From assembly GCF_001677475.2 (NCBI RefSeq), contig NZ_CP015229.1: 64,000 nucleotides of DNA; one strand, given 5' to 3'. Made by a program: the position numbers and the translations under genes. Under the pieces are notes generated by a model. The model ran no database searches, was not told where the DNA came from, and worked only from the letters and a program-made list of their open reading frames with translations. Origin of the DNA: Escherichia coli. Lineage in GTDB: Bacteria > Pseudomonadota > Gammaproteobacteria > Enterobacterales > Enterobacteriaceae. Below, one piece after another: positions 1 through 42,240 of this stretch; the first letter of the stretch is position 1, and every line of letters starts with the position of its first letter.

Positions 1-829
1 TCAGCACGCCCGCAGTATCACGCAGGGTTTCACAGGTGATGATCATCAGCGCGGTGGTTTGTTTACGCGCGACAACCTGCTCCAGCATCTCCATCAGCAA
101 GGCTTTGTTCGGCAAATCCGACACCGGGAAGCGCATCGCGTTTTCGTTCTGTTCTTCATAATGGCGCTGCAGCAATTGCTGGTTGAGGTTGTAACTGCGC
201 ACCAGCATACCGATTTCATCGTCCTGATGCAGACGTGGTAATGCCAGTTGGTGACCAACAAGCTCCTGGGCAGGGATGGCGTTAAGTTCGCGAGCAATAT
301 TGCGTAACGGATGCAAAATCAGGCGGTTAATGCACCAGCTAATCGCCACCGTCAATATTAACGACAAAAGTAAGTAAATGGTCACTAACGTTGAGAGGGT
401 GCTCATCACGAACTTATACATGCGGAAGGAATCCGCCTGTAGCACCAGATAGGCAATTGGCTGCGGATTTGCCGGACGTTCCAGCGAGTAAACGCCCAGC
501 GAGATTTGAACCGGTAGCTCAAACAGGCGAGTAACCATTACCGGCACCGGACGCTCTGGAATAAAACTTTTACGCAGCGCCTGGAACTGGTTAGGCAGCA
601 CTACATCGGCACGGCTGACCACGCCTGCCGGTTTAATGCTGGCAAGAATAGCTTCCGCTTCGGGAATATCGCCTTTCAAAATAGCTGAAGATAAGGGTTC
701 GCGGACAGAGCGAGCAATGCTTTCCAGTTGCGTAGCCGTGTTATAGCGATTCTGCTGGACCAGATGGAACAGCAAAACGGTGCAAAAAATAAAAACGAAC
801 ACCAGGACAACGGCTGCCACCATTGCCAT
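1..829 (-). CDS. pdeK: c-di-GMP phosphodiesterase PdeK (YhjK), N-terminal part; gene continues beyond the window start
   Basis: Manual minus-strand translation from ATG at 829..827 gives [15 protein letters not shown]...[20 protein letters not shown], open to position 1. It has a membrane N-terminus and HAMP-like segment as in YhjK/HmsP. Missing from the ORF track because no stop lies inside the window. An upstream TTG at 862..860 (reading [14 protein letters not shown]) could be the true start. Confidence 0.75.
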
Positions 830-943
830 CTGCTTGATTGTTAACGAGCGACTTACGCGCAAATTGTCTCCCCCCGGAAATCCCAGATTGCCGCCCGAGT
901 ATACCCGATCGCAGCGGCATTAAGAGAGGCGCTATCTGAAAAC

Positions 944-3900
944 TTACCAGTCGGCGTAAGGTATCAGCGGCTGCGGCGGTAAATCCATGTCACCCTGCCA
1001 TCCGGCGGCGGAATAACGTACGTAGAGCAGGAAATGGCTGGGTGCGTAATCTTTCGCCTGCTGGATATCAATTGCCGTGCCGACAAACCAGTTGGAAGTA
1101 ACACGCCGTTCAAGTAATGCCCGCGCCGTGTAGCCGAAGCCCTGACTGCTGCCGCCATCGTTGGATTGCCGCGCAGCTTCTTCCTGCCAGTCGGTCGGGA
1201 TCAGATTCATCAGCGGATAACGCGGCATGGTTTTGGTGCGTGAATGCGACCACGAGCCAGACGCCCCCAGCTCCCACGACCAGTTTTCCGTGCGCTCCCG
1301 CCACATCACCGGTATGGCAAACGACAGGTATTCCTGCGGACTGTAGTAACCGCCCTGACCGAGTGAGTAGCCACTCAGATCTTTGTCGTAATGCCAGATC
1401 ATGTTGTTCAGGCCGATTGTGACGCGGCGATTGTTCTGGTTAATGACCTTATAGTAATAGCCCGTCATCCAGCGCACGCGCCAGTTATCTTCGACATTTT
1501 TACCGGTTAACTGGTCACCGCTAAGCGATGCCCAGACGCCGTTTGCTTCACCTTTATCGTAGCTCAGGCTTAGCCCCACGCCGTCGGCACGCACGCCACC
1601 CCATTTTTTCCCGGTATTGCTCGGGGAGTCTTTTTGCCCACCAAAGGCCAGCAAAGAACTGGAGATGGGCCGACGGTGGGCGTTAACGGTGTAACCCAGC
1701 GGCCCGATATCATCGCTGTAACTGATGCCGCCGACCACATCCACCACGTTGAAGCCCATCGGCGTGGTGCCGATATCCCAGCTCCAGACGTCATTTCGCC
1801 AGCCGACCGCCACGCTGGCACCGGAGTCCGACTGGCTGCGGTTGCCACTACAGTCCTGTAATGTACAGGTGCCCCAGTTGTCATCCCATTTGCCATCGGC
1901 ATTAGTGGAGAAACTGCCGACGTTCATATTGACGAAATCACTGCGAAAGAACATCCTCCCGTCAGAATACGGAGCATCCACCTGCAACATGGTAGTGTGC
2001 GCTTTCAGATCGGAGTAACCACCGGTGCCGCTCGAACCCCAGTAATCGTGCTCGAGGGTGACGTTAAGATCCTGCTGGCGATAGAGGTCCGCCGCATCGC
2101 TGCGCACGCCGCGTTTCAGCCAGTCATCTTTCTCGTCGTTACGGGTCAGTCGGGTAAAGGTGTCGTTATCCTGCGGACGCGTCGTAGTCACACCGGATGC
2201 GACCATGGCGTCTTTGTAGGTTTCCAGCGCCTGCTTTGGATCGCCCGCCTGCGCTTCAAACTTCGCACCGTCGCGCAGCACCATCGCGCTTTCCATCGAC
2301 GGTGGCTGAGATTTTGCCTGCGGGATCAACTTATTAAACGTCTGCTGCGCCGCTGCGGTATCGCCAAGCTGCGCCTGTGCCAGCGCCACGCGCCGCTGAG
2401 TGTTCAGCGACGCGTTATCGGTGGCAGGCAGTTTCGCCAGCTGGCTACGTGCTGCCGCTTTGTCACCGGCAGCAATATCCACTTCCGTCAGACCAAGAAT
2501 GGCATCGGCGTTAGTTGGCTCCCGCATCAGGACATTCTGATATGCAGCGCGAGCGGCGGTATAATCACGTCGTTGTTGCGCCCAGTCAGCCAGCGTGAGA
2601 TCAATACGCGTGGAAGGTGGTTGCTGGCGCAGCATCGCTTCCGCTTCAGCTTCTTTGCCGCTTTCTCGCAGGCGATTAGCGGTTTCCAGCACCTGATCGC
2701 TTTGCAGTCGATTAACCAGCTCCTGAATATTGCTGTTCCACTGCGCGCGCGGCAGGCTGTTGATATGCGCCAGAGCCGCTCTGTCCTGGTCATGACCAGA
2801 GAGGTACAGCCCGTAAGCGTAAACCTGCTCCGGGTCGTTCGGCTTCTGCTGCGCCAGATGGCGCATTAACGTATCGGCCTGGCTGCGTTGTCCGGCCTGC
2901 CAGAGATCCTGCGAAAGTCGGTAAGTAATCCATACACTGCCGGGGTCCAGCGCCAGTCGCTGGCGCTGAAGTGCTGCCGCCTGCGCCCATTTCCCCTGGT
3001 TTTCCAGTGCCTCTGCCTGCTGTGCCAGACGGTCGTTTTGCAGGCTGCGTTCGATATCATCAATGCTGCGCCGCTGGCTGGCAGAGAGCGAGGCGATAAA
3101 CGCTTCAGCTTTTTCTGGCGATTGCTGGCGGTATATATTCGCCAGCCCGCGCACGGCGTTAGTGTTGCCGCTGTCCATACGCAAGGTCTGCTGATAATAA
3201 CGTTCGGCGGCGGGATAATCTTTTCGTGCCATCGCCACATCGCCCAGCCCCAGCACTGCATAACTGTCGGTGTTATCGACATTACGTGCCTGCTGGAACA
3301 GGCGTTCTGCCCGGTCAGGATTATTGGCTTTCAGCGCAGCATCGCCCTGCTGGATCGCCAGCCAGTAGCGGTTTACTTTCAGGAGACTGTTCCATTTGTC
3401 GTTGTTGCTGCTGTGCGGGTCCAGTGCGAGGGCTTTTTCCAGATTCGCCACCGCATTAGCGCGATCGCCATTCTGGGAATACGCCTGCCCCAGCGCCCCC
3501 AGAGCCTCACTGTCTTTCGGGTTCGCCCGCACCGCCTGTTGTAGTTCGGGAATGGCTTTACCCACCATACCAGAGTCCACCGCCGCTAAACCTTGCGCAC
3601 GAGCGCGGAAAGCAGGGTCGGCCAGCTGTTTTTGCTGTTCTGCCAGTTGCGATTGTGCAGCCGCCACGCTATCGCCATCGCTAAAGATCGAAAGATATTT
3701 TTTCAGCGCCGACACACTGGCATCGCTGACGGGCATGTCTTTAATCTGCCCGTACCAGATTTTAGAGGCCCCCTCGCGCCCGGCGTTCGATTTCGCCATT
3801 TGTTCCAGGACGGCAAAGCCTTCGTCACGGCGATCGCTACTAAACAGCAATAGCGCCAGATTGTTTTGCAGGCCCGTGTTGCCCGGTGCATCCGCATTGA

Positions 3901-4417
3901 TGCGTTTTAACTGATTAATCGCTTCGCCACGGCGAGCCGGAATTTTCGCCACCGTACTCCAGTACTCGACAGCAATGTCACCTTCCGGCGGCGCACCGTT
4001 GAACAGTTTGTTGTAACTCGCCACTGCTTCTTCCGCATGACCGGTCGTCGCCTGCAATCTTGCCTGTTGCAGTGCCTGACGACCATCCGGCGTGGAAAGC
4101 AGCATCGTAGTCCGCGACGATTTATACGCATTTGAACTCGGCGCTAACTGCGACAGCCGATCGAGCTGTTTTTGCGCGCCATCAATATCGCCCTGACGTA
4201 ACAGAGAACGGAAACGGGCGGCAACGACGTCCGGGTTATTCGGATCAATAAGTTCCAGCCGATATAACGACTGTTGCACCAGATCTTCACGATGGGTCGC
4301 TTCGCCTAACCGAACTTGCTCCAGCAACTGTTGCTGAGCGGTTGGTGCTGCCTCGACCATCGGCATGACGGCCAGACCGAGGGAAAGCGTGAATATGTTT
4401 AGTGTGAATTTGCGCAT
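944..4417 (-). CDS. bcsC: cellulose synthase operon protein C (TPR-repeat periplasmic / outer-membrane export subunit)
   Basis: 1157-aa ORF with many TPR-like repeats and a C-terminal beta-barrel-like region; length and position downstream of bcsZ match BcsC. Confidence 0.95.
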
Positions 4418-5505
4418 TCCTGGCCCCAGTCAGGTAATAACTCACCTTTTGTCGAGAAGCGGAAACGGTGTTGATCCCAGCCTTGTCCAAACAGGGTCAG
4501 CACATAGTTGTAATAGGCATCGCTGCCGGGAAAGTTATCGGCCACGCGCTGGCGCTGAACGGCCTGCGCATCGCGGTTTTGTAAAAAGGGCAGCATGGCG
4601 GCAGAAAAACCGACCGGTCCTTTACCCTGCGCTTTCCCCGTAGCCACATCCACTTTTTCCGGCGGATAACCGTTTTTCTCGGTGAATGTCGCCATCGGTT
4701 TAAACCGGTTGAGCATCCGCGCTTTTTGCGGATCGCTGTCAGGCATCATGCCTACCCACATGTAAACGCGGATCGCGTCGTAGCTGCTGATCAATGTTTT
4801 TTCGGCTTTTAGCTGCCAGCCTTTGTCTTTCTCATAGCGCACCCAGTCTGGCGAAAAGCCTTTCGGGGCGGTTTCCAGCAATAAACGTTGATTGGTTTCG
4901 CGCAGCGTGGTCCACGGCGCGCCAAAGCGGGTGAAATACTGCGCCAGCGTCGGCGGCAGGTAGCTGGGGTTAAAACGCCAGCTGTTATCCTCTGCAAAAC
5001 CCACTTTGCCCGGTAACAACATGGAACCCAGCCCAGGCACCGTCACCACTTCCTCCCGCGCAATCCGTTTTAGCAACGCGCTGCCGATGTCGGTATAACG
5101 CTGCTCTTTCCACAAACGCCCCGCCTCCAGCAACGACCAGGCCATCCAGACATCACCATCGGAGGCCGAATTGCTGTCCAGCACTTCCCACTTACTGTTC
5201 TCTTTCTTGCCCCACAGCCAGGCGGGCAAACGTTCTTTTAAAGAACCCTGAGCGAGATTGTTCTGCGTCCAGTCGAGAATATTATCGAAAGCTGCACGGT
5301 CGTTAGCCGCCAGGGCAAAGAACATACCGTAACTTTGCCCTTCGGAGGTGGTGATTTTGCGCGCGTCGCTGGGGTCGATGACGCGCCCTTCCTGACTGAT
5401 GTAATCCTTTTTAAACTGCTCCCAGGCAGGCCAACTGCAGGCTGCCTGAACACTAAAGGCAGCCAACAGCAGCATCGTCACGAGTCCACTACGCAACACA
5501 TTCAT
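4399..5505 (-). CDS. bcsZ: endo-1,4-beta-glucanase (cellulase, GH8) BcsZ
   Basis: Starting at ATG 5505 gives 368 aa beginning MNVLRSG with a signal peptide; the track ORF begins two codons upstream at a TTG. Overlaps the bcsB stop and bcsC start as in the bcs operon. Confidence 0.93.
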
Positions 5506-5511
5506 CTTCAA

Positions 5512-7851
5512 TTACTCGTTATCCGGGTTAAGACGACGACGACTAATAATTCGCAGCAGACGCCACAGTACCCAGGCCAGCAGCACGACGCTGATTGCCG
5601 CCAGCACCGCCAGCAGAATCGGATGGTTTGCCAGCGCATACCACAAGCGCTCGAACCACGGCAGATGACCTACGTAATAAACGTCGCCAACACGTAGGCT
5701 GTTGATACCGGACTCGCGGATCACCGCGACCGAACCGAACATGGTGGCGCGTTTGCCGCTATCGTTCACCGCATCGTTAAGCATTTCATAACCGCGCGGG
5801 CTATCTGCCAGCAGCGCAATCACGCTGCGCTGGTCGTTATACGGCGACTGGAAGCCAATCACCGCTGCCATCGCACCTGAAGAGGTCAGCGTTGACTGAG
5901 TTTCTGCCGCGCGATCGCTCTCGTCCGGTACAATGCCGGGGAACGGGGTCTGGCGCATCGGCGTTTTCACCCAGCTTTCGGTCGCCTGCACCAACAGGTC
6001 GATCTGCTTGTCGTCTTTCAGTTTGTCCGGGATACCACCGACGATCATGATGTCGGCATCTTTCCCCTGAATAGTGCTGCCATCATCGGTCACCGTCAGG
6101 TTAATCGCCGGGAAGCCCGTCTGTGCGCCGATAAAACCAACAGTATTCAGCAACGTTTCCATCTGTGCTTCGTTAGGCGTTTTCGGCATCACGGTGATGG
6201 TTTGCGACAGATCCGCCATCCGGCTGAACGGGAAGCCCGCGTTAGCAAAGGCGCGTAGATCCGGCATCGGGATGAAGTGGTAATACTTCGAGAAGTCGAT
6301 GGTGGAATCGTCACCAATCACCACATGATTCTGCACCGGCTGGAAGGTAATACAGTTATCCACCGAACCGCCCGGCATCGGGTTCATATACTCAAAGTCG
6401 AAGCGCAGCTGGTTGGTCGCGCCCAGTTTCAGCGCCGGAATAGAGACATCCGTTTTGCCATCCAGCAAACCTTGTAATACCGGAATCCGCAGCAGCAGGC
6501 GGTTCGCCTCCTGTTTGCTGCTCAGGTTGAAAGATTGCAGGAACTGGTTATTCAGGCTGATATCCATCCGCGAACTGTCTTTCACCGGCGGCATGGTGTA
6601 GCGGTAATTAATATCCATATCAATGCCGGTACTGCGCATCAGGTAGAGATCCGGCGGCAGGTTTAGCGAAACGTTAATCGCTGCTGGCTCAAGACCGCTG
6701 GATTGTAACTGTTCTTCATAGGTTTTCAGTTCACCAAAGGTGACCGGACGATCGGTACGTACCCAGTTCGGCGCATCGTAAGGCTTACGCGGTAGCAGCG
6801 GTTTCACTTCATTCACTACCACGCTTTCACCACGGAACAGAATGTTACCCTGAGCGATACCTTTCGCTGCCTGCAACAGGTCTTTGTCGTCACGACCAAA
6901 CACCACCAGCAGTTTGACGTAAGGATTCTGCGGATGGTTGATCATCTCAATCACCGGGGCTTTTACCGCCGGATGATCGCGCAGGAAGTCCGGCCGTTTG
7001 TCGTTGGTTGCAAAGACAATGGCATTGCGATCCGGCAGTTGGTTATAGAGCACCGGGAAGTTCTGCCCACGCCAGCCAGAACGCGAACCAAACCACGAGG
7101 CGACAATGGCAGAGGCTTGTTGCAGCCCAACATCCGGCGCACCCGCAAAGACCATCGGCAAGGTGTTAGTACGGTTATCGCGCGGGTCAAAGAATGGCAC
7201 CGGGAAGTGTGACAGGTCATTCTTTACATTCAGGGTCTGATAGGTCAGATCCAGTCCACTGCTCCGCCCAACATCCAGCCAAAGCGTGGTGCTGGCCGGG
7301 TTTTCGCACACGTCCTGATAATGGCCGACAAACTCCAGCCGCACACGGTTGAAGTCGGTAATAAACAGTGGGTTAATGGGCATTTGCGCCAGTGTTTTTT
7401 TACCCAACTGTTCTTTGGTCACTGGCAGCACGCCCATCAGTTCATCATTGAGATAAACCTTTAACTGCGACTGGACAGGCAGTAACGATGGCGATGGCGT
7501 GTATTCGAGGTTGAGCATCGCCTTCGTCACCACTTCATCGCTGCGCATACCAAACTCAATGCTGCCGTTCGGGTTAATGCCACGTAGCACCATGCTGCCC
7601 GGCGGCGGCGCAATTTGCGCAAAGGTCAGCTTCACATCACGCGAAGGACCGTTCTGCGCCACGACTGGCGCATCAGCGCCCTGCACGCCCGGCATCACTT
7701 GCCCCACCTGCGGATTTTGTTCCGTCTGGGCGGCTACAGCTGGCTCAGCATTGATCAGTGGTTGCGTTGCTGGCGTCGCCTGCGTCATGAAAGAGGGGAA
7801 CGCACTCATCCCCATAGCCACTGCACAAATCCAGAATAGTTTTCTTTTCAT
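5512..7851 (-). CDS. bcsB: cellulose synthase regulatory / periplasmic subunit BcsB
   Basis: 779 aa from ATG at 7851 (MKRKLFWICAV, signal peptide) with a C-terminal TM anchor; sits between bcsA and bcsZ. Confidence 0.93.
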   Translation of the reverse strand: MKRKLFWICAVAMGMSAFPSFMTQATPATQPLINAEPAVAAQTEQNPQVGQVMPGVQGADAPVVAQNGPSRDVKLTFAQIAPPPGSMVLRGINPNGSIEFGMRSDEVVTKAMLNLEYTPSPSLLPVQSQLKVYLNDELMGVLPVTKEQLGKKTLAQMPINPLFITDFNRVRLEFVGHYQDVCENPASTTLWLDVGRSSGLDLTYQTLNVKNDLSHFPVPFFDPRDNRTNTLPMVFAGAPDVGLQQASAIVASWFGSRSGWRGQNFPVLYNQLPDRNAIVFATNDKRPDFLRDHPAVKAPVIEMINHPQNPYVKLLVVFGRDDKDLLQAAKGIAQGNILFRGESVVVNEVKPLLPRKPYDAPNWVRTDRPVTFGELKTYEEQLQSSGLEPAAINVSLNLPPDLYLMRSTGIDMDINYRYTMPPVKDSSRMDISLNNQFLQSFNLSSKQEANRLLLRIPVLQGLLDGKTDVSIPALKLGATNQLRFDFEYMNPMPGGSVDNCITFQPVQNHVVIGDDSTIDFSKYYHFIPMPDLRAFANAGFPFSRMADLSQTITVMPKTPNEAQMETLLNTVGFIGAQTGFPAINLTVTDDGSTIQGKDADIMIVGGIPDKLKDDKQIDLLVQATESWVKTPMRQTPFPGIVPDESDRAAETQSTLTSSGAMAAVIGFQSPYNDQRSVIALLADSPRGYEMLNDAVNDSGKRATMFGSVAVIRESGINSLRVGDVYYVGHLPWFERLWYALANHPILLAVLAAISVVLLAWVLWRLLRIISRRRLNPDNE

Positions 7852-7861
7852 CGCGTTATCA

Positions 7862-10480
7862 TCATTGTTGAGCCAGAGCCTGATCCGATGGTTGTGCCGT
7901 TTCGCTCCGCTCCGGGCGGCGCGGAATAAACGATACAACCCAGGAAACCAGAGAAGTCAGCACACGGAATATGCCCTTCACCGAAGAAGGCGCAAACTCC
8001 GCCAGATGGCGGTAGCCACGGAAGCCGAGCTTCAGAATATCCAGCAGACTTTCCAGCGGCTTATCTTCCGGGTAGCTGTCCTGCCAGAGCGCCCATGTAT
8101 CCGCACGGGCAAACGTACACTGCACAAAATCGATATGTTGCTGAGTGGTGAGCGGCATTAATTTCAGCCCAACTTCATTACCCATCACGCGCGCCACCTG
8201 GGTCGGGAAGACATATTCCTGCTGACCGCGTTTAAGCAACAGATTCACTTTCTGCCCTTCCAGAATCTGTGCCTGACCGTTGATCTTGATCCCCAAACCA
8301 CCGTCGGAGAAATCCTGAACGGTACACGAGAAGAGATGACCATCTTCGCGGGCAATTGCCGCGGGCATCGTCATCTCCACGCGGTGCGAACGACGTACCT
8401 GTTTGCTTTCTACCGATACCGCAACTGCGCCGCCAAGAACAATCAGGTTGTAGAATACCCACACCATACTGACGACCACGGTGAGCATCTCGGTTGGCGG
8501 ACCATAGAAGTAGCGCCAGATGCCTACCGCAACGCCCACCAGGTTGAGCAGAACAAGGAAGATGTAGGGCCGCGAGATCACCCAGTCGACGTACTCTTCT
8601 TCCACCAGTCCACCTTTGGCGGTGACGTTAAATTTGCCTTTGTGCGGGTTAATCAGCGCCACCAGCGTCGGTGGTGCGATATACCACGCCAGCACCGTTT
8701 CGTAGATTTCACTCCAGAAAGAGTGGCGATATTTGCCCTGGATCTTGGAGTTGGTCAGGCTAGCATGGATCATATGCGGCAGCACGAACAGGGCAATCAT
8801 CAACGCTGGCGCATAGATGATGTAGGCATGAAGCAGCAGGAACGCCAGCGGCGCAGTCAGGAAGATCAGTCGTGGAATGCCCGACAAGAAGTGGAACATG
8901 GCGTTGACGTAACATAGCCGCTGAGCAAACTTCAGCCCTTTACCGGTGAGCGGGTTATCGAGACGAAAGATTTGCACCATCCCGCGCGCCCAGCGAATAC
9001 GCTGACCAATATGCGCCGACAGACTTTCGGTCGCCAGCCCCGCCGCCTGCGGAATACGCATATATGCAGAGGTGTAGCCACGACGGTGCAGGCGCAAAGA
9101 GGTATGCGCATCTTCAGTCACAGTTTCGACAGCAATACCGCCAATTTCATCCAGCGGCTTACGGCGAATCACCGCACAGGAACCGCAGAAGAAAGTGGCG
9201 TCCCACATATCGTTGCCATCCTGCACCAGACCATAGAACAGCGTGCCTTCGTTCGGTGTTTTACGAAAACGCCCCAGGTTGCGTTCAAACGGGTCCGGTG
9301 AGAAGAAGTGGTGCGGCGTCTGCATCATCGCCAGCTGTTTTTCTTTCAGGAACCAGCCCATGGTCATTTGCAGGAACGATCGCGTTGGTACGTGGTCGCA
9401 GTCGAAAATCGACACGAACTCGCCTTTGGCATATTTCAGCGCATTGTTGATGTTGCCCGCTTTCGCATGTTCATGAGTGGTGCGGGCGATATATTTCACC
9501 CCCACGTTTTGCGCAAACTGGCGAAACTCTTCCCTGCCGCCGTCATCAAGGATCCAGATGTTCAGCTTGTCTTTCGGCCAGTCGATACCCAGCGAAGCGT
9601 AAATGGTATTTTTCACCACGTTGAGATCTTCGTTGTAAGTCGGGACAAAGATATCCACCGACGGCCACAGCGACATATCTTTCGGCAATGGCACCGGCTG
9701 ACGATTCAGCGGCCATACGACCTGGAAGTAGCCGAGCACCAGCACAATCCACGCGTACGTTTCAGCGAAGAGCAGAATAAGCCCGCACACCAGGCTGACC
9801 GGATCGTCCCAGTTCAACGTAGAGGTGTAGCGCCACCAGATATAACGGCAAGAAACGGTCAGCGACAGCACAATCAGCATCAACGCCGAGAAGCGCCCCG
9901 GCATCCGCCGTACGATCAGCGCTACACCCCACAGCAGCATCAGGAAGATAAACTGCGCCAGCGGGTTAAATGGCTGGGTGACGCAGATTAATGCCAGAAT
10001 CAGCGAGAAGGTGACGATGATACCGAGGATCAACCGCCGCGCCCCGGCACTCAAATGACCGAGTTCTTTTTTCTCATCAAGATGCTGTGTTTTATGGCTA
10101 ACGCGCTCAGGCAGCTCGTTCATCCATTGATGGTAACGTCCACGAATATTTTGCAGACCTGAAAATGCCCGCCTGCGCGGTTTCGGCGTTTCTTTGCGCG
10201 ATGCACCGATCAGTAACCAGCATGTTTGAATGAGATAACGGACCGGGTCCAGCGGACGCGGACGCGAGGCGTTGATATGCGGATACAGGTTTTTATGTTC
10301 TGCGCGAATACGCTGCCAGCGCGGGTGCTCCAGCGGAATAAAAATCCAGGCCAGGATCATCCAGAAACAGCCGAGCGTCGCGCTGAAAGCCGACGCACCG
10401 TGGCGACGATAATCGCGATAACGCCCGATAAGCCGCGCGTTGACCGGCGGGATAAGCAACCACCGGGTCAGGATACTCAT
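7862..10480 (-). CDS. bcsA: cellulose synthase catalytic subunit BcsA (GT2 with C-terminal PilZ domain)
   Basis: 872 aa from ATG 10480 (MSILTRWLLIPP); contains the glycosyltransferase family 2 region (DDG..., QRIRWARG) and a PilZ-like C-terminus. Start overlaps the bcsQ stop (ATGA). Confidence 0.95.
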   Translation of the reverse strand: MSILTRWLLIPPVNARLIGRYRDYRRHGASAFSATLGCFWMILAWIFIPLEHPRWQRIRAEHKNLYPHINASRPRPLDPVRYLIQTCWLLIGASRKETPKPRRRAFSGLQNIRGRYHQWMNELPERVSHKTQHLDEKKELGHLSAGARRLILGIIVTFSLILALICVTQPFNPLAQFIFLMLLWGVALIVRRMPGRFSALMLIVLSLTVSCRYIWWRYTSTLNWDDPVSLVCGLILLFAETYAWIVLVLGYFQVVWPLNRQPVPLPKDMSLWPSVDIFVPTYNEDLNVVKNTIYASLGIDWPKDKLNIWILDDGGREEFRQFAQNVGVKYIARTTHEHAKAGNINNALKYAKGEFVSIFDCDHVPTRSFLQMTMGWFLKEKQLAMMQTPHHFFSPDPFERNLGRFRKTPNEGTLFYGLVQDGNDMWDATFFCGSCAVIRRKPLDEIGGIAVETVTEDAHTSLRLHRRGYTSAYMRIPQAAGLATESLSAHIGQRIRWARGMVQIFRLDNPLTGKGLKFAQRLCYVNAMFHFLSGIPRLIFLTAPLAFLLLHAYIIYAPALMIALFVLPHMIHASLTNSKIQGKYRHSFWSEIYETVLAWYIAPPTLVALINPHKGKFNVTAKGGLVEEEYVDWVISRPYIFLVLLNLVGVAVGIWRYFYGPPTEMLTVVVSMVWVFYNLIVLGGAVAVSVESKQVRRSHRVEMTMPAAIAREDGHLFSCTVQDFSDGGLGIKINGQAQILEGQKVNLLLKRGQQEYVFPTQVARVMGNEVGLKLMPLTTQQHIDFVQCTFARADTWALWQDSYPEDKPLESLLDILKLGFRGYRHLAEFAPSSVKGIFRVLTSLVSWVVSFIPRRPERSETAQPSDQALAQQ

Positions 10481-11229
10481 GATGCACTCCCGACTGGCGT
10501 TTTCAGCCCGGAATAGTTCAACAGGCACCAGTTAGCCAGCGTCAGTATCTCTTCCGCCGCCAGCGCATCACTGCGATATTCACCGACTGGTTGCTTAGCC
10601 GCCAGGCATTCAGCCATCGCTTCATCACGATGAATGAGCATCGGCAGTAATCGGCGCTGGCTTTGCAACCAAAGCTGGTAAATATCGTCCTGAACCTGAC
10701 TGCCGATACGGAAGTCATTAATCAAAATATGCGCGCCATCCGGCAGCGCCTGCTGATGCAGCCGGATATGGCAGTTGGCATCCACATTGACGATTGCCAG
10801 CGAGTGATCGCACAAACTCAGCAGCTGGTGGGTTATCTGCGAGGCATCACGCGGTAAGTCGATTAAAATCCACTGGTAACGCCCGCTGGCTTTTAGTTGC
10901 TGTAAGCCGGAGCAAATATCGCTCAGCCGGGTTTGCCAGTGCTGTGGATTTTCTTGTTCTTCAATGGATAACTGACCAAAAGGCAGCAAATCGAGCTGCG
11001 AGGTATAGCGCAACCCAGCGTCACGCCAGTCCTGGCCATCCAGCATAGCTCTGGCCCAGCCCTGACGGTGGGTAAAATCAACGTTAAATGACAGGCGCAA
11101 CAAGTTGTCCGGGCAGGCATCGACCACCAGGACATTTTCTCCCAACATTTGTAATGACCAGGCTAATGCGGCGGTGATGGTTGTTGTCCCCACGCCTCCC
11201 CGCACCCCCTGCAATCCCAGTACGGCCAT
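10477..11229 (-). CDS. bcsQ: BcsQ (YhjQ), ParA/MinD-like ATPase of the cellulose secretion system; intact reading frame
   Basis: 250-aa ORF MAVLGLQGVRGGVGTTT with a deviant Walker A motif. No premature stop, unlike the K-12 allele as I recall it. Confidence 0.9.
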   Translation of the reverse strand: MAVLGLQGVRGGVGTTTITAALAWSLQMLGENVLVVDACPDNLLRLSFNVDFTHRQGWARAMLDGQDWRDAGLRYTSQLDLLPFGQLSIEEQENPQHWQTRLSDICSGLQQLKASGRYQWILIDLPRDASQITHQLLSLCDHSLAIVNVDANCHIRLHQQALPDGAHILINDFRIGSQVQDDIYQLWLQSQRRLLPMLIHRDEAMAECLAAKQPVGEYRSDALAAEEILTLANWCLLNYSGLKTPVGSAS

Positions 11230-11240
11230 TCACCAATCCC

Positions 11241-11429
11241 CTACTTTTGTTGCGCAAACTCTGCCAGCAACGGCCAGCGTTTTAATGCCGCGGCCAACTG
11301 TTCGCGTTGGGAAATATCGGCATAATCAATATCAGGCAGTGAAAATGCCTGCTTTAACGCCAAAATATCATTCTGGAAGATATAGCCTATCGCGGGATCA
11401 GGCAGAGTATCTGGTTCATTGTTATTCAT
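11241..11429 (-). CDS. bcsR: BcsR (YhjR), small cellulose-synthesis regulatory protein
   Basis: 62 aa from ATG 11429 (MNNNEPDTLPDPAIGY...AEFAQQK), immediately upstream of bcsQ. Confidence 0.8.
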   Translation of the reverse strand: MNNNEPDTLPDPAIGYIFQNDILALKQAFSLPDIDYADISQREQLAAALKRWPLLAEFAQQK

Positions 11430-11471
11430 TTGCTTGATCCCTATGAAATAACCGTACCGTTCATGAGACAA

Positions 11472-11700
11472 TTCTAACCGTGAGCATTTCGCCGGTTTAT
11501 TGTTTACGGCGAGACGGGAATTTGCTCACTTTTTGACTTTCCGTTACGCAACAAAAAAAGTTAAAAACGAAAAGACTAAAATCACACGTCTTGTGACCTG
11601 CTAAATTGATTCACATGCTAAATCTGATAAGTTTTAATTTCAATGGTAGGTTTATTTCTTAGCTTTCGCTAGTAAACTGATAATCAGACAAAATGATGAC
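11472..11700. promoter_or_regulatory. divergent bcsRQABZC / bcsEFG promoter region
   Basis: 229-bp AT-rich intergenic region between divergently oriented bcsR and bcsE. No individual promoter elements mapped. Confidence 0.5.
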
Positions 11701-13272
11701 ATGAGGGACATTGTGGACCCTGTATTCTCTATCGGTATCTCATCATTATGGGATGAGCTGCGACATATGCCAGCAGGCGGCGTCTGGTGGTTTAACGTCG
11801 ATCGCCATGAAGATGCTATCAGTCTGGCGAATCAAACAATTGCATCCCAGGCTGAAACCGCACACGTCGCGGTCATTAGCATGGACAGCGATCCGGCGAA
11901 AATCTTTCAATTAGATGATTCTCAAGGGCCGGAAAAAATAAAATTATTTTCAATGCTAAATCATGAAAAAGGTCTATACTATTTGGCCCGTGATTTGCAG
12001 TGTTCTATTGAACCCCATAATTACCTTTTTATTCTTGTTTGCGCAAATAACGCATGGCAAAACATTCCTGCCGAGCGGCTTCGCTCATGGTTGGATAAAA
12101 TGAATAAATGGAGCAGGTTAAACCATTGTTCGCTTTTGGTAATTAATCCCGGAAATAATAACGATAAACAATTTTCATTGTTGCTTGAGGAATACCGTTC
12201 ACTTTTTGGTCTTGCCAGTTTGCGTTTTCAGGGTGACCAACATTTGCTGGATATTGCCTTCTGGTGCAACGAAAAAGGGGTTAGCGCCCGTCAGCAGCTT
12301 AGCGTTCAGCAACAAAATGGTATCTGGACATTAGTTCAAAGCGAAGAGGCGGAGATCCAACCACGCAGCGACGAAAAACGCATTCTGAGTAATGTTGCTG
12401 TACTGGAAGGTGCGCCGCCGCTATCGGAACACTGGCAACTGTTCAACAATAACGAAGTTCTGTTCAATGAAGCCCGTACCGCTCAGGCGGCGACGGTGGT
12501 CTTTTCTTTACAGCAAAATGCGCAAATCGAGCCACTGGCCCGCAGCATTCATACTCTGCGTCGCCAGCGCGGTAGTGCGATGAAAATCCTCGTACGGGAA
12601 AATACCGCAAGCCTGCGCGCCACCGATGAACGTTTGTTATTGGCCTGCGGTGCAAATATGGTTATCCCGTGGAATGCGCCACTCTCCCGTTGTCTGACGA
12701 TGATCGAAAGCGTGCAAGGGCAGAAGTTTAGTCGCTATGTGCCGGAAGATATCACTACCTTGCTGTCAATGACCCAGCCGCTCAAACTGCGTGGTTTCCA
12801 GAAGTGGGATGTGTTCTGTAATGCCGTCAACAACATGATGAATAACCCTCTATTACCTGCCCACGGTAAAGGCGTTCTGGTTGCCCTACGTCCGGTACCG
12901 GGTATCCGCGTTGAACAAGCCCTGACGCTGTGTCGCCCTAACCGTACCGGCGATATCATGACCATTGGCGGTAATCGGCTGGTGCTGTTTCTCTCATTCT
13001 GTCGGATTAACGATCTGGATACCGCGTTGAATCATATTTTCCCATTGCCTACTGGCGACATTTTCTCAAACCGTATGGTCTGGTTTGAAGATGATCAAAT
13101 CAGTGCCGAGCTGGTGCAGATGCGCCTGCTTGCCCCAGAACAATGGGGCATGCCGCTGCCTTTAACGCAAAATTCTAAACCGGTCATTAATGCCGAGCAC
13201 GATGGTCGCCACTGGCGACGAATACCAGAACCCATGCGACTGTTAGATGATGCTGTGGAGCGCTCATCATGA
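11701..13272 (+). CDS. bcsE: BcsE (YhjS), c-di-GMP-binding cellulose secretion protein
   Basis: 523-aa ORF, first gene of the divergent bcsEFG unit; length matches BcsE. Confidence 0.9.
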
Positions 13273-13460
13273 TGACCATCAGCGATATCATTGAAATTAT
13301 TGTCGTTTGCGCACTGATATTTTTCCCGCTGGGCTATCTGGCGCGGCACTCTTTGCGACGCATTCGCGACACCTTACGTTTGTTCTTTGCTAAACCTCGT
13401 TATGTTAAACCGGCCGGGACGTTACGCCGCACGGAAAAAGCCAGGGCAACCAAAAAATGA
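13269..13460 (+). CDS. bcsF: BcsF (YhjT), small membrane protein
   Basis: 63-aa ORF with a single hydrophobic helix ([19 protein letters not shown]); start overlaps bcsE stop and stop overlaps bcsG start. Confidence 0.8.
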
Positions 13461-15136
13461 CTCAATTTACGCAAAATACCGCCATGCCTTCTTCCCTCTG
13501 GCAATACTGGCGCGGCCTTTCCGGCTGGAACTTCTATTTTCTGGTTAAGTTCGGCCTGTTGTGGGCAGGATATCTTAACTTCCATCCGCTCCTCAATCTG
13601 GTGTTTGCCGCGTTTCTGCTGATGCCCATTCCGCGCTACAGCCTGCATCGCTTACGCCACTGGATTGCCCTGCCGATCGGCTTTGCTTTGTTCTGGCATG
13701 ACACCTGGTTGCCTGGCCCGGAAAGCATAATGAGCCAGGGTTCGCAGGTGGCGGGGTTCAGTACCGATTATTTAATCGACCTTGTCACACGCTTTATTAA
13801 CTGGCAGATGATTGGGGCCATTTTTGTTTTATTAGTGGCCTGGTTATTCCTGTCACAATGGATTCGCATTACCGTTTTTGTGGTTGCCATTCTGCTATGG
13901 CTGAACGTACTTACCCTGGCGGGACCAAGTTTCTCCTTGTGGCCAGCCGGTCAACCGACGACCACTGTAACAACGACGGGTGGTAACGCAGCGGCAACCG
14001 TTGCGGCGACGGGTGGCGCACCGGTAGTGGGTGATATGCCCGCACAAACTGCACCGCCAACAACGGCGAACCTTAACGCCTGGCTGAATAATTTCTATAA
14101 CGCGGAGGCGAAACGTAAATCGACCTTCCCGTCTTCGCTGCCCGCTGATGCTCAGCCATTTGAACTACTGGTGATTAATATCTGTTCGCTTTCCTGGTCG
14201 GATATTGAAGCCGCCGGGTTGATGTCGCATCCGCTGTGGTCACATTTCGATATTGAGTTCAAGAACTTTAACTCCGCCACCTCCTACAGTGGCCCGGCGG
14301 CGATCCGTTTACTGCGCGCCAGCTGCGGGCAGACTTCGCATACTAATCTGTATCAACCGGCAAATAATGACTGCTATCTGTTTGATAACCTGTCGAAACT
14401 GGGCTTTACCCAGCACCTGATGATGGGACATAACGGCCAGTTCGGCGGTTTTTTGAAAGAAGTTCGCGAAAATGGCGGCATGCAGAGCGAATTGATGGAT
14501 CAAACAAATCTGCCGGTTATTTTGCTGGGCTTTGATGGTTCGCCGGTTTATGACGATACCGCCGTGCTTAACCGCTGGCTGGACGTTACCGAAAAAGATA
14601 AAAACAGCCGTAGTGCCACGTTCTATAACACGCTTCCACTGCATGACGGCAACCATTATCCGGGCGTCAGCAAAACAGCGGATTACAAAGCGCGGGCGCA
14701 GAAATTCTTTGATGAACTGGACGCCTTCTTTACTGAACTGGAGAAATCGGGTCGTAAAGTGATGGTGGTCGTGGTGCCGGAACACGGTGGCGCGCTGAAG
14801 GGCGACAGAATGCAGGTATCTGGCCTACGTGATATCCCTAGCCCGTCTATCACAGACGTCCCCGTTGGGGTGAAATTCTTCGGCATGAAGGCACCACATC
14901 AGGGGGCACCGATTGTCATCGACCAACCGAGCAGCTTCCTGGCTATCTCCGATCTAGTGGTTCGCGTTCTTGATGGCAAGATTTTCTCCGAAGACAATGT
15001 TGACTGGAAAAAACTCACCAGTGGGTTACCACAAACAGCACCGGTCTCCGAGAACTCAAATGCAGTAGTTATTCAATACCAGGATAAACCGTACGTTCGC
15101 CTGAACGGCGGCGACTGGGTGCCTTACCCGCAATAA
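13457..15136 (+). CDS. bcsG: BcsG (YhjU), phosphoethanolamine transferase for cellulose modification
   Basis: 559-aa ORF with multiple N-terminal TM helices and a C-terminal periplasmic domain; matches BcsG in length and position. Confidence 0.9.
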
Positions 15137-15140
15137 GAAC

Positions 15141-15172
15141 GAAAAAGGCCGCAGAGTTTCACCCCTGCGGCC
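15141..15172 (-). terminator. rho-independent terminator of ldr copy 1; the same hairpin follows the bcsG stop on the + strand
   Basis: Perfect 8-bp stem GGCCGCAG/CTGCGGCC (15147..15172) followed on the minus strand by a T-run (A-run 15142..15146 on plus). Confidence 0.6.
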
Positions 15173-15222
15173 TGGTCCGGGCGCAAATTGCCATTACGGC
15201 AGCCTGACGCCCGCATGACACG

Positions 15223-15330
15223 TTACTTCCGCTTGTTCAGCCAGTTCACGATCATACTGGCAAGAATGCCAGCAATGACCGGAGCCGCTAAATCATGCCA
15301 GAAGGCCATGCCCAGCTCTGCGAGCGTCAT
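15223..15330 (-). CDS. ldrD: Ldr-family type I toxin peptide (35 aa), copy 1
   Basis: ATG at 15330..15328, stop TAA at 15225..15223; by 483-bp periodicity with copy 2 it encodes an MTLAELGMAFWHDLAAPVIAGILASMIVNWLNKRK-type peptide, a close match to LdrD as I remember it. Below the 60-aa track cutoff. K-12 has one ldrD at this position. Confidence 0.8.
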   Translation of the reverse strand: MTLAELGMAFWHDLAAPVIAGILASMIVNWLNKRK

Positions 15331-15629
15331 ATAGCCGCCTGTGTTGTAATGACAACGTTTCGCGGCTATTCTTGAGTGGTCTAGGTTCAAGATTAGCCCC
15401 CGTTATGTTGTCAGGTGCATACCTGCAACGTGCGGGGGTTTTCTCTCTCCAGCAACCAATGCCACCAGGGATAAAGCCCCCGCAACATTGCGCCTCACCG
15501 GAACCCTTCCGGCTTGCCGCTGATTCTACGACTGTTTTTCTGTTCCGGAATCCGTCACGTCTTCACTCTGTGCTGCGCATTCCGCAGAATATTATCCGCG
15601 TGCAATCGTTGCATTTTTCTTACGAAAAA

Positions 15630-15813: not shown

Positions 15814-16288
15814 ATAGCCGCCTGTGTTGTAATGACAACGTTTCGCGGCTATTCTTGAGTTGTTCAGGTTCAAGAATGGCCCCCGTGATGTTGTCAGGTG
15901 CATACCTGCAACGTGCGGGGGTTTTCTCTCTCCAGCAACCAATGCCACCAGGGATAAAGCCCCCGCAACATTGCGCCTCACCGGAACCCTTCCGGCTTGC
16001 CGCTGATTTTACGATTGCTTTTTACTGTCAGCACCCGGCAATCTTCCTCATTGCGTGATGCCTTCCAGCTTAATTTCTTAATTTGCAATAGTTGCAGTTC
16101 ATATCCGGGCTGACTCCAGACTGGTAGTGAAATGCGCAATTTTGTAGAATTGCGCCTCCTCGCGACCTCCCCAGTGAATCTGTTGCCTCATTTTTTACAT
16201 ACTGCGTATTCGACTTCTCCACCTGTTGCGCAAGAGAAACTGGGTTTATTCATTTTTGCGAGGCCGACTTCTTTCTGGACAGGACTTT

Positions 16289-32165: not shown

Positions 32166-33368
32166 TTATATGTGAGCCTCACGCAACATTTTCTGTTCTG
32201 GCTGACGAATCGTCGTAGAGAGCGCCAGTGACAGAATCAGCAGGGCGAAAATCACGTAGAAGGTCACATAGAAGCCGCCAAACAGTGAGGCGATAATCGA
32301 CCCACAAATGCTGCCGATACCGAAACCGAGATAAATCACACCGTAGTTTTTCGCCAGGTTATTGAGGCCGAAGAACTCACTGACCAGTGACGGAAAGACG
32401 GTAATAGTGCCGCCAAAGTTAAATGCCACGCAGGCAATCGCTGCAAAGAACGTCACTGCATTCAATGGTGCAAACAGCAGGGCCGCCATACCCACCAGCG
32501 AAATCACCTGACCAATGGTGATAACACGGATACGGGCGATTTTGTCAGACAGTATCCCCAGAACCAGACGACCTGAAAGGTTGGCGATGGAAATAACAGT
32601 AACTGCATTAGCTGCGGAAACCACATCAAGGTGTGCCAGACTTTGGGCGATATCTTTCGCTACCCCAATCACGTACAGGCCGCTCATGCAGGCAGTCAGG
32701 AACATTACCGCTAACATCCAGTACTGCGGTTTACGCATCGACTCTGCCAGCGTGTAATCTTTCTCCACCACACCATTGCTGGTTTTCACTTCCTGTTTTG
32801 GTGCGTCTTTCATTAACGTTGCGCCGAAAACAATCATCACCAGCGCAATCGCTCCCCAAATCACAAAGGTTTTTTCCAGACCGACCGTTTCCAGCAGCTG
32901 CGTGTCGATAAATTTGAAACCCAGGCTACCCAGACCATAAGAACCGATAGCGAACGCGGAGATCAGACCTTTACGCTCCGGGAACCACTTCACGCAGTTA
33001 GAGAGCGTCAGCAGGTAACCCGCGCCATCCGCCAGACCGACCAGCACACCGGCGCTTAACCACAGCATCATCAGGTTGTCAGAATGCGCTGTCAGGAAGA
33101 AGCCTAATCCTAGCAAAATGCCGGAAGCCATAGTGACGCGTTTAACGCCAAAACGTTCCTGTAATTTCCCCGCAACAGAAGATGAAATTGCCAGCCCCAG
33201 ACTTAACAAGCCGAAAGAGAAAGCGACCTGGCTTACCGGCGCATCCAGCTTGGCAGAAAGCGCGCCGTTAAACAGGCTCCAGGTATAAACCGACCCCAGC
33301 GCAAACTGGGTAATGATAGTACCGATGAGTGTCAGCCAGCGGGTACGCTGATAATTTGAAGGTGTCAT
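32166..33368 (-). CDS. yhjX: MFS transporter YhjX (oxalate/formate antiporter-like)
   Basis: 400 aa from ATG verified at 33368 (MTPSNYQRTRWLTLIG); 12-TM MFS protein. Confidence 0.9.
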   Translation of the reverse strand: MTPSNYQRTRWLTLIGTIITQFALGSVYTWSLFNGALSAKLDAPVSQVAFSFGLLSLGLAISSSVAGKLQERFGVKRVTMASGILLGLGFFLTAHSDNLMMLWLSAGVLVGLADGAGYLLTLSNCVKWFPERKGLISAFAIGSYGLGSLGFKFIDTQLLETVGLEKTFVIWGAIALVMIVFGATLMKDAPKQEVKTSNGVVEKDYTLAESMRKPQYWMLAVMFLTACMSGLYVIGVAKDIAQSLAHLDVVSAANAVTVISIANLSGRLVLGILSDKIARIRVITIGQVISLVGMAALLFAPLNAVTFFAAIACVAFNFGGTITVFPSLVSEFFGLNNLAKNYGVIYLGFGIGSICGSIIASLFGGFYVTFYVIFALLILSLALSTTIRQPEQKMLREAHI

Positions 33369-35453: not shown

Positions 35454-37755
35454 GTGTCAGTTCCGGACCGTTGTATTTTTCCAGCCATGCCAGCGCCGTA
35501 TTACCCGCACAGCCATTCCCCAGCCGCGAGCTGGGGAGATCTTTGGTCAGCACGTTCACTGCGCCGTTTTTACAAATACCGTCAGCGGTTAAATCCAGAT
35601 CCGGCCATGCCCCTTCGTGAATGCAAATCACGCCAGGTTTAATTCCCTCGCTAATGACTGCCCCGGCAAGAATTTGCCCGCGTGCGTTCCACAGCCGAAC
35701 AGTATCGCCATCTTGTATGCCGCGCGCCTGAGCATCGTCAGGATGAATGGTGACAGGCTCACGGTTTGCCACCGCGTACAATTCGCGCAGAGAACTGTAA
35801 TTCAGCTGGCTGTGCAGACGATGTGCCGGATGAGCAGAAAGTACCTGCAACTGTTCCGGTTCGGCATTGCCCTGCCATTCGTCCGGCTCCAGCCACATTG
35901 GATGCCCCGGGCAATCCGGATAAGCGTAATCAGCAATACGCTGCGAGAAGATTTCAATCTTACCACTGGCAGTTTTTAATGGATGCGCCTGCGGATCGCG
36001 GCGAAAATCGGCGAAGCGAATAAACCGCTCGCTGTCTGGGTTTTCCGGCATCTCAATTAACTGGTTGGCTTGCCAGAACTCAGCAAATGGCGGCAATTCA
36101 ACCTGCTGGCTTGCCCCGCGCTGCCGGGCAACGTTATAAAACGTTTCCAGCCATTGCAGCTCACTTTTTCCTTCCGTAAACCGCGCATAGCCGCCCTTCT
36201 CCCAACGTTCACTCAACTCGGCAAAGACATCAAAATCATTACGCGCTTCATAACGTGGCGGCACCACTTGTTTCATCAGCACCAGATGCTGATTGCTGTA
36301 ATCGCCGGTCATGGTGAGATCATTACGCTCAAACGAGGTGGTCGCAGGCAGAACGATATCCGCGTGTTTCGCCGCCGCCGTCCAGAAGCATTCAGAGATC
36401 ACCACCAGCTCCGGTTTTTGCCAGGCACGGATCAGGCGATTGGTATCCTGATGATGAGTAAAGTTGGCACCGCCCGCCCACCAGATAAAACGAATATCCG
36501 GGAAATGTCGGTCCATACCGTTATGTTGATATGCGCCACCGGGGTTTTCCAGTGCTTCAACAATGCGGGCAACAGGGATTTTATCCACCGCATCGGTGCC
36601 GCCAGGCAAGCTGCCCTGCATGGAAGAGAGCACCGCAGCGCGGCGAGTGGGGTTACCACCATTGGCAAAATGGTAAGAAAGTCCAAAACCGCCGCCGGGT
36701 GTGCCGATTTGCCCCAACATTGCCGCCAGCGTGACGATCATCCAGTGTTTTTGCTCACCAAACTGTTGGCGCTGCATTCCCCAGCCAGCCATCAGCATGG
36801 TAGTATTTTGATGGAAAAGAGCCGCCAGTTCGCGGATTTTCGCTGCGCCAACACCACAAATCCCTGCCGCCCATTCGGCGGTTTTCGCTATTCCGTCGCT
36901 CTCGCCCAGCAAATAAGAGGCGAAAACGTCATAACCTGTGGTGCAACGCGTCAGAAACGCTTCGTCGTGCCAGCCATTTTCCACCAGCGTATGGGCGATC
37001 CCTAGCATCAGCGCAACATCGGTGCCCATGTGCGGTGCCACCCACTCCATTTTATCGCCAAAGAAATCGACGGTTTCCGATCGCATTGGATCAATGCAGA
37101 TCAGCTTTTTCCCGCTGTCACGCAGTGCGGAAAAGTAAGAAAGCCCCTGCTCATCAGATGCATTCCACGCAATTTTCAGCGTATTGAGTGGGTTAGCACT
37201 CCACAACACCACGACATCGCTATGTTCCAGCACCAGCGGCCAACTGGTTTGCTGCTGATAGACTTCGCTGCCCCCCACGACATATGGCATGATCGCCTGT
37301 GCCGCGCCGGTCGAATAATCCCCCAGATGCCCGGTATAACCGCCTGCCAGCGCCATATAGCGTTGTAATAATGTCGAGGCCTTATGCAGCACGCCGTTTG
37401 AACGCCAGCCGTAGGAACCAGCAAAAATCGATGCCGGACCATAAGCCTCACGAATACGTTTATGTTGTTGGTGAATAAGCTCCAGCGCCTCATCCCAACT
37501 CACACGAACAAATTCATCCTGCCCACGAATGCCTTGCGGGTTTTCCGGTGACGCGAGAAAGCCTTTGCGCACCATTGGAAATCGTACCCGCGTATTGCTG
37601 TGAACCTGGTCGCGAACCGCGCTCTGCAAGGAATTTTCCATTCCTGTGGCTAACGCGCCACGTGAGCTAAACACGGTTTCGCCGTCAGTTTCAACCAGCA
37701 TGGGCCCCCAGTGGGCGGCAGTCAGAACGGAATATCGTGAGGATGAGTTGGCCAA
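35422..37755 (-). CDS. bisC: biotin sulfoxide reductase (molybdopterin oxidoreductase)
   Basis: 777-aa DMSO-reductase-family ORF; length and position match BisC. Confidence 0.93.
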
Positions 37756-41809: not shown

Positions 41810-41962
41810 TTACTCTTTTAAATTGCAGGCTAAAAATGCCGCCAGCTCATAACTCCCCTGTTTAATATGCAATTCACACAGTGAATCTCTTATCATCCAG
41901 GTGAAAAATAAAAGCGTGAAACAAATCACTATTAAAGAAAGCAATCTATATTTCTGCGGCAT
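41810..41962 (-). CDS. hokA: Hok-family type I toxin (50 aa)
   Basis: ATG verified at 41962 (MPQKYRLLSLIVICFTLLFFTWMIRDSLCELHIKQGSYELAAFLACNLKE); a hairpin GGCGGGAAGTTATTCCCGCC follows the stop. Confidence 0.85.
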   Translation of the reverse strand: MPQKYRLLSLIVICFTLLFFTWMIRDSLCELHIKQGSYELAAFLACNLKE

Positions 41963-42240
41963 TCCCAGCCCCCTGTGTTGATTTCCAACGAGTAAGAGGC
42001 TAACCTTATGGTGTCTATGCATAGAGGGGCCTCACTTTGATTTATAGTCAGGTGGGGCTTTTCTCTGTCTGCCTTTCGGTGAATACCTGAGACAAACAGT
42101 CTCAAGCACCCGTGGCTATTCTAGCTTAATAAGTTTGTTTCTTCTCCTTGATATAATCCTAAAAAAATCTCATAAAATTAATATATGAGATAATCTTTAT
42201 TCAGCAGAAGATTATTAAAGGTTGCTGTATTATTTAGCGA
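41963..42240. promoter_or_regulatory. hokA upstream leader region, expected site of mok/sok elements
   Basis: 278 bp between hokA start and the glyS terminator, with a promoter-like CTTGATATAAT near 42148. By analogy with hok/sok loci an antisense Sok RNA and mok frame are expected here, but neither was positively identified. No IS sequence present. Confidence 0.45.

Follow-up and report, generated by a model that had tools for sequence, protein, structure and literature searches.

Which gene occupies the first bases of the minus strand in the window (the whole stretch of 64,000 nucleotides of Escherichia coli DNA that was analysed), and where does its translation begin? The first-pass annotation had described an edge-truncated coding frame at 1-829 lacking a stop codon within the window, and reading of the minus strand from base 1000 to base 1 bore this out. 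In-frame stops were found at 946, 934 and 922 and none from there down to base 1, with the frame that holds ATG 829 being open from base 1 to 919 and extending over 306 codons up to the TAA at 922-920; no in-frame minus-strand stop was present within 1..829. The probability of 306 open codons occurring by chance was approximately 4e-7 under uniform codon usage and, along with the strong family matches described below, this excluded a chance ORF. The absence of the gene from the ORF track had also been explained correctly, being due to the ORF listing skipping frames that run off an end of the window for want of an in-window stop.

The frame is almost certainly the 5' 43% of pdeK (yhjK; hmsP in PGAP annotation), the gene of a cellulose-synthase-associated c-di-GMP phosphodiesterase, initiated at TTG 862. 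Its position and those of its neighbouring elements are as follows.

1..862, minus strand: 5' part of pdeK, codons 1-287 and the first base of codon 288, of 662 (open frame, RefSeq CDS start, HmsP profile)
863..943, minus strand: spacer between bcsC and pdeK, 81 nt, identical to that of K-12 (K-12 comparison)
944..4417, minus strand: bcsC, intact with 1157 amino acids, closing the bcs operon and adjoining pdeK on its upstream side (ORF listing; same offsets in the K-12 and 118UI annotation)

Comparison of the 287-residue fragment to the NCBIfam equivalog NF008807 ('biofilm formation regulator HmsP') gave a match with E=1e-108 over profile positions 1-290 of 670. The score of 364.2 bits was below the curated whole-protein cutoff of 733 bits because the gene is truncated by the window edge, with 57% of the protein lying beyond it; the full-length HmsP of E. 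coli strain 118UI and PdeK of K-12 were each found to score 781 bits. The fragment was identical to HmsP of 118UI at all 287 residues and to K-12 PdeK at 286 of 287, the single change being Q199 here and K199 in K-12. At the nucleotide level, 18 differences from K-12 were identified over the 862 nt, 17 of them silent, indicating purifying selection. The annotated CDS in both 118UI and K-12 MG1655 is 1989 nt in length and encodes 662 amino acids (designated hmsP by PGAP, and pdeK, b3529, in K-12), with 1127 nt of the gene lying past base 1. K-12 PdeK (YhjK, b3529, NP_417986.4) stands as the orthologue, sharing the same 81-nt distance to bcsC, an identical spacer and the same TTG start, with the difference that only 43% of the gene is inside the window. 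When window positions 1-1200 were used as a query, 5421 out of the 5426 complete E. coli genomes contained at least 80% of its length, with a best identity of 99.6% and with the features always being hmsP and bcsC.

Judged by these alignments, the fragment belongs to the HmsP equivalog family and is orthologous to pdeK of K-12, a gene that is already known. The earlier proposal of the N-terminus of a YhjK/PdeK-like c-di-GMP turnover protein on the minus strand is in agreement with the GAPES3, HAMP and HmsP matches and with the 286/287 identity to K-12. Regarding the assignment to YhjK/HmsP, the gene, strand and truncation stood, while the c-di-GMP-degrading EAL domain (residues 415-648 in K-12) was located outside the window.

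The same query also returned 127 plasmid places, none of which concerned pdeK; they consisted of plasmid-borne bcsC genes that matched only 954-1200, along with several chromosome-sized entries classed as plasmids. On approximately 126 E. coli plasmids the match was confined to window positions 954-1200 (the 3'-terminal ~247 bp of bcsC), with an identity of 97-99%. On the IncHI1B plasmid pB27_2 the matched piece was the end of a full-length plasmid-borne bcsC. This suggests a plasmid-carried bcs cluster with a 3' end nearly identical to that of the chromosomal bcsC.

The features bearing on the start of translation are the following.

860..862, minus strand: TTG start codon (annotated start in K-12, b3529, and in 118UI; TTG kept in five other genera)
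868..871, minus strand: GGAG, core of the Shine-Dalgarno sequence, located in GGGGGGAGA and 5 nt ahead of the TTG (read from the sequence)
830..859, minus strand: codons 2-11, basic cytoplasmic N-terminal tail with three K/R and no D/E (conservation, codon-position pattern, HmsP score)
823..829, minus strand: internal methionine codons ATG 829 (M12) and ATG 823 (M14), rejected as starts (no SD-like sequence upstream, AATCAAGCAG)

Translation of pdeK very probably starts at TTG 862 rather than at ATG 829. The RefSeq start corresponds to the TTG at window position 862 in both K-12 and 118UI. Comparison of the start region of the window to the orthologous loci of Klebsiella, Buttiauxella, Erwinia, Pectobacterium and Sodalis showed a TTG at the same codon in all six genera, with GGAG(A) located 5-6 nt upstream and the remaining upstream DNA being unrelated; in each of the five other genera, an in-frame stop preceded the TTG at a distance of 5-13 codons. 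Over codons 2-12, the five loci differed from the window at three first, no second and 36 third codon positions, a pattern which indicates that this stretch is translated and under strong constraint at the protein level. Among 22 orthologues of 49-79% identity, R2 and R5-M12 (RSLTIKQM) were found to be invariant, with the latter being the longest invariant run of the N-terminal module in that alignment. The score against the HmsP model was 364.2 bits for a start at 862, 346.5 for 829 and 342.3 for 823, with the residues ahead of M12 adding 17.7 bits. Furthermore, the tail ahead of the first transmembrane (TM) helix, with three K/R and no D/E, fits an N-in topology, and with initiation at M12 or M14 the first residue would already lie within that helix. 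Literature on the start codon of yhjK was searched for and nothing relevant was found.

The same gene read from ATG 829 (M12) would give a protein of 651 amino acids whose first residue already lies within TM helix 1. As an initiator, ATG is stronger than TTG, the invariance of M12 in 22 of 22 orthologues means that an internal start is always at hand, and the 276-residue version still matches the HmsP model with E=2.5e-103. However, the 20 nt upstream of this codon, TTAACAATCAAGCAG, contain no SD-like sequence, the RefSeq annotation puts the start at 862, and a protein initiated at M12 would lack positive charge before TM helix 1. Moreover, the 11 upstream codons that such a start would leave untranslated are under protein-level selection (3/0/36) and hold the longest invariant run of the N-terminal module, making initiation at ATG 829 improbable. 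The start had initially been regarded as ambiguous between ATG 829 and TTG 862, with the feature ended at 829. The TTG was a sound candidate; the end at 829 and the ambiguity did not withstand the RefSeq annotation, the GGAG, the conservation of the tail, its 3/0/36 pattern and the 17.7 bits.

With TTG 862 taken as the start, pdeK begins 81 nt downstream of the bcsC stop codon (946-944). Window positions 1..15543 were collinear with K-12 in the order pdeK-bcsCZBAQ-yhjR/bcsEFG, and the location of the gene directly downstream of the bcs operon, as first described, was therefore upheld, the bcsC stop being 81 nt away and the order as in K-12. The claim that this position is functionally coherent, in terms of c-di-GMP control of cellulose, is likewise in agreement with Richter et al. 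2020 (PMC7397504). In all five other genera examined pdeK was found to adjoin bcs genes, with the upstream neighbour of the orthologue being bcsC in Klebsiella, bcsZ in Buttiauxella, bcsE in Erwinia, bcsG in Pectobacterium and bcsQ/A in Sodalis.

A simple scan of the minus strand over 1..1500 revealed no terminator-like hairpin and no consensus sigma-70 promoter. The fold of the bcsC-pdeK spacer was unremarkable (z=+0.62), and a search of Rfam over 1..943, including this spacer, gave no match at gathering score; an RNA element or unusual structure in the spacer or in 1..943 was ruled out by the latter two results. The short spacer of 81 nt, the absence of a terminator or consensus promoter in the simple scan and the plain fold suggest that pdeK in E. 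coli may be expressed, at least partly, by read-through from bcsC. The PdeK/HmsP family generally would be expected to possess its own promoter, as the gene upstream of it differs from genus to genus, being divergent in Erwinia and in Sodalis.

That pdeK of this strain is disrupted or a pseudogene beyond the window edge, with the fragment not belonging to a working phosphodiesterase, is more improbable still than initiation at ATG 829. The visible part does end at residue 287, and genes of the bcs region are sometimes inactivated in E. coli, as with the bcsQ pseudogene in K-12 and the internal stop of bcsC in 118UI. Against this, the 18 nucleotide differences from K-12 found in the 287 visible codons change only one amino acid, indicative of purifying selection, bcsC and bcsQ are both intact in the window, and at least 80% of the 1200-nt query was present in all but five of the complete genomes noted above. 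Examination of the operon itself showed bcsQ (10477-11229, minus strand) to encode 250 amino acids with no early stop, in contrast to the pseudogene of K-12, and bcsC (944-4417, minus strand) to be intact, in contrast to the copy with an internal stop in 118UI, the closest complete genome. From the integrity of these two genes, the cellulose operon of this strain looks functional.

The full-length K-12 protein comprises GAPES3 (residues 36-155), HAMP (178-231), GGDEF (247-394) and EAL (415-648) domains. The window holds the cytoplasmic tail, TM helix 1, periplasmic GAPES3, TM helix 2, HAMP and approximately 41 residues of a degenerate GGDEF, stopping after residue 287 with base 1 as the first base of codon 288. 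The 375 C-terminal codons, with the whole of the EAL domain among them, are located beyond it. The parts were assigned as listed.

761..829, minus strand: TM helix 1, approximately residues 12-34 (Kyte-Doolittle peak of 3.1 over residues 5-38; model helix 7-62)
398..757, minus strand: periplasmic GAPES3 sensor domain, residues 36-155 (Pfam PF17154, E=6.5e-47, full model covered)
338..412, minus strand: TM helix 2, approximately residues 151-175 (Kyte-Doolittle peak of 2.4 over residues 150-184; model helix 145-194)
170..331, minus strand: HAMP linker, residues 178-231 (Pfam PF00672, 24.1 bits, 0.9 under the 25-bit gathering score)
1..124, minus strand: start of the degenerate GGDEF domain, residues 247-287 (~41), cut by the window edge (K-12 domain bounds)

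The N-terminal module of PdeK/HmsP, TM1-GAPES3-TM2-HAMP, was thus found to be present by Pfam, hydropathy and structure model, with HAMP being 0.9 bits sub-threshold; its residues D214, D215, E216 and G218 were invariant in the orthologues. In the 662-residue K-12 numbering, the catalytic half carries its EVL motif at E444 and the catalytic E624, with residues 288-662 lying past the window.

An AlphaFold2 model, built from an alignment of 22 sequences, had a mean pLDDT of 81 and a pTM of 0.56. The model consisted of a long helix (7-62) formed by TM helix 1 and a periplasmic extension, a periplasmic alpha/beta unit (helix 66-74, strands 82-88 and 94-99, helix 108-114, strands 119-123 and 138-143), a second long helix (145-194) running from TM helix 2 into HAMP, and the second HAMP helix (216-243). 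In a comparison to the PDB using Foldseek, the match that ranked first among those of domain size was the periplasmic domain of a Legionella LapD orthologue (4u64), with E=2.6e-3, a probability of 1.00 and a TM score of 0.52 on the target and 0.28 on the query; the 123 aligned columns had 20% identity and an rmsd of 5.3 Å. It was followed by WalK extracellular domains (E=6e-3 to 2e-2) and other Cache/PDC sensors. An integrative model of full-length WalK was the top match overall, because the layout of TM, sensor, TM and HAMP is common to both proteins. A sequence search of the PDB returned nothing at E<=0.01. The model moderately supports a LapD-like (Cache/PAS-like) fold for the periplasmic GAPES3 domain, in agreement with the prediction of a LapD/Cache-like 'HmsP domain' (PMC5976881) and with the NCBIfam similarity of the module as a whole to DgcN/YfiN and, weakly, to LapD.

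Salmonella STM3615 has been linked to DsbA/DsbB (PMC4143323). Cysteines of the fragment occur at positions 27, 177 and 277 only and the periplasmic segment has none, ruling out disulfide sensing by this domain, with any Dsb link being indirect.

In K-12, the cytoplasmic part of PdeK has been described as an active c-di-GMP phosphodiesterase that depends on its EAL motif, while its TM regions bind the cellulose-synthase subunit BcsB and its periplasmic loop is required for binding the MASE2 domain of DgcC (PMC7397504). PdeK, DgcC and BcsB were described to form a local c-di-GMP source, sink and target arrangement at BcsA (PMC7397504). The phenotype of a pdeK deletion was weak, and for this reason the authors proposed that the enzyme is restrained by its membrane and periplasmic part until a signal arrives (PMC7397504). 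The part of pdeK in the window is exactly the docking and regulatory portion described for K-12.

The numbering of that study (Richter et al. 2020, PMC7397504), with E431/V432, E611 and 'amino acids 148-649', is that of a 649-residue protein, which corresponds to a start at 823 because its offset from the 662-residue RefSeq protein is exactly 13 residues. Initiation of the same gene at ATG 823 (M14), although evidently used by an earlier annotation, is the least probable of all the readings considered, given that M14 is variable, with T, A, I or L taking its place among the orthologues, and so is not the start of the family, that no SD lies upstream, that its family-model score of 342.3 bits is the lowest and that the arguments for 862 count against it too.

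For PdeK initiated at TTG 862, a mechanism may be proposed. As in the K-12 work, the two TM helices would dock PdeK onto BcsB, with the periplasmic loop contacting MASE2 of the diguanylate cyclase DgcC, and the EAL domain would serve as a sink that removes, locally, the c-di-GMP produced by DgcC for BcsA. The periplasmic/HAMP module may keep the phosphodiesterase in a state of low activity until a periplasmic cue releases it, the signal possibly travelling through TM helix 2 and HAMP by analogy with proteins of the LapD and YfiN types. Initiation from a weak but conserved TTG could serve to keep the copy number of PdeK low.

Comparison of the fragment to related systems revealed both shared modules and differences in output. 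HmsP of Yersinia pestis is the namesake of NF008807 and, likened here by description, has the same equivalog family and architecture. PMC4381331, PMC4891359 and PMC4264472 describe it as a c-di-GMP phosphodiesterase inhibiting biofilm formation, which controls the Hms exopolysaccharide of hmsHFRS and is the sole phosphodiesterase. PdeK, in contrast, is one of 13 phosphodiesterases in E. coli and acts locally on the pEtN-cellulose synthase (PMC7397504). LapD and CdgS9 (4u64) have the module order of TM, periplasmic domain, TM, HAMP, GGDEF and EAL in common with PdeK, and the fragment gave a weak NCBIfam match to LapD (E=4.9e-4). However, LapD lacks catalytic activity and is a c-di-GMP receptor, capturing the protease LapG through inside-out signalling (PMC7397504), while the EAL domain of PdeK is active, and the periplasmic Pfam family is LapD_MoxY_N in LapD as opposed to GAPES3 in PdeK.

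DgcN/YfiN (NF007423) was found to share a homologous module of TM, periplasmic domain, TM and HAMP (E=8.7e-14, residues 12-276 against profile positions 13-277 of 390), with a score of 51 bits against the 325-bit equivalog cutoff; unlike PdeK, YfiN has a C-terminal active GGDEF cyclase and no EAL. A weak Pfam CHASE8 match was also found in the fragment. The 'HmsP domain' of Pseudomonas aeruginosa SagS and BifA, by its description homologous to the HmsP N-terminus, consists of two TM helices around a periplasmic sensor followed by HAMP (PMC5976881), with SagS differing from PdeK in being a hybrid histidine kinase. A search for homologous proteins with the 287-residue query returned matches of up to 503 amino acids, with no full-length 662-residue PdeK among them, and these were used for their N-termini only. 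The missing full-length PdeK is probably an effect of how candidates were collected for a query of this length. Several of the matches had unrelated C-terminal sequence or extra Pfam domains.

Elsewhere in the window, further elements were identified as follows.

15379-15444 and 15862-15927, plus strand: two rdlD antitoxin RNA matches, ~480 nt apart, with one in K-12 (Rfam)
23844-24262: proK tRNA region with an RtT RNA match, an naRNA4 (CssrE) match and a 108-nt repeat (RNA matches)
26243-32173: long polar fimbriae operon lpfABCDE, complete, 5.9 kb between eptB and yhjX, absent from K-12 (NCBIfam)
~41960-42111: hokA/sok locus without the IS150 that interrupts the K-12 copy (Rfam sok match)

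The two rdlD matches indicate that, downstream of bcsG, the ldrD/rdlD type I toxin-antitoxin unit has been duplicated in tandem. The copies of the 108-nt repeat at proK span 23929-24036 and 24097-24204, an arrangement that differs from K-12. LpfA, LpfB, LpfC and LpfE scored above their NCBIfam cutoffs, while LpfD scored 310 bits against a cutoff of 412 bits, pointing to a divergent adhesin. At hokA/sok, the alignment was found to jump from coordinate 35876 to 37321 of the compared K-12 locus.

Returning to the tail of PdeK, R5-M12 was invariant although the orthologues are only ~50% identical overall, and the weak TTG initiates the tail in each of the six genera for which DNA was examined. The third codon positions of this stretch vary freely and its conservation is at the protein level, which argues that it is not an RNA element. 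It is conceivable, though less likely than not, that this cytoplasmic N-terminal stretch of PdeK/HmsP acts as a protein motif in its own right, contributing, for example, to gating, to membrane targeting or to the attachment of the protein to the synthase complex. Such a motif would probably have been overlooked, as the 649-residue numbering of the main functional study begins 13 residues later.

Bases 1-862 are taken up by the coding sequence of a known gene, not by unannotated space, filling the gap in the ORF track, with the end of the feature to be shifted from 829 to 862. The locus holds nothing new in kind on the c-di-GMP control of cellulose. What is added is firm comparative support for the 662-residue, TTG-initiated PdeK as the real protein, whose first 12 residues, missing from the 649-residue numbering, are more strongly conserved than any other stretch of the N-terminal module, and this is of relevance to PdeK constructs designed from the older 649-residue coordinates.
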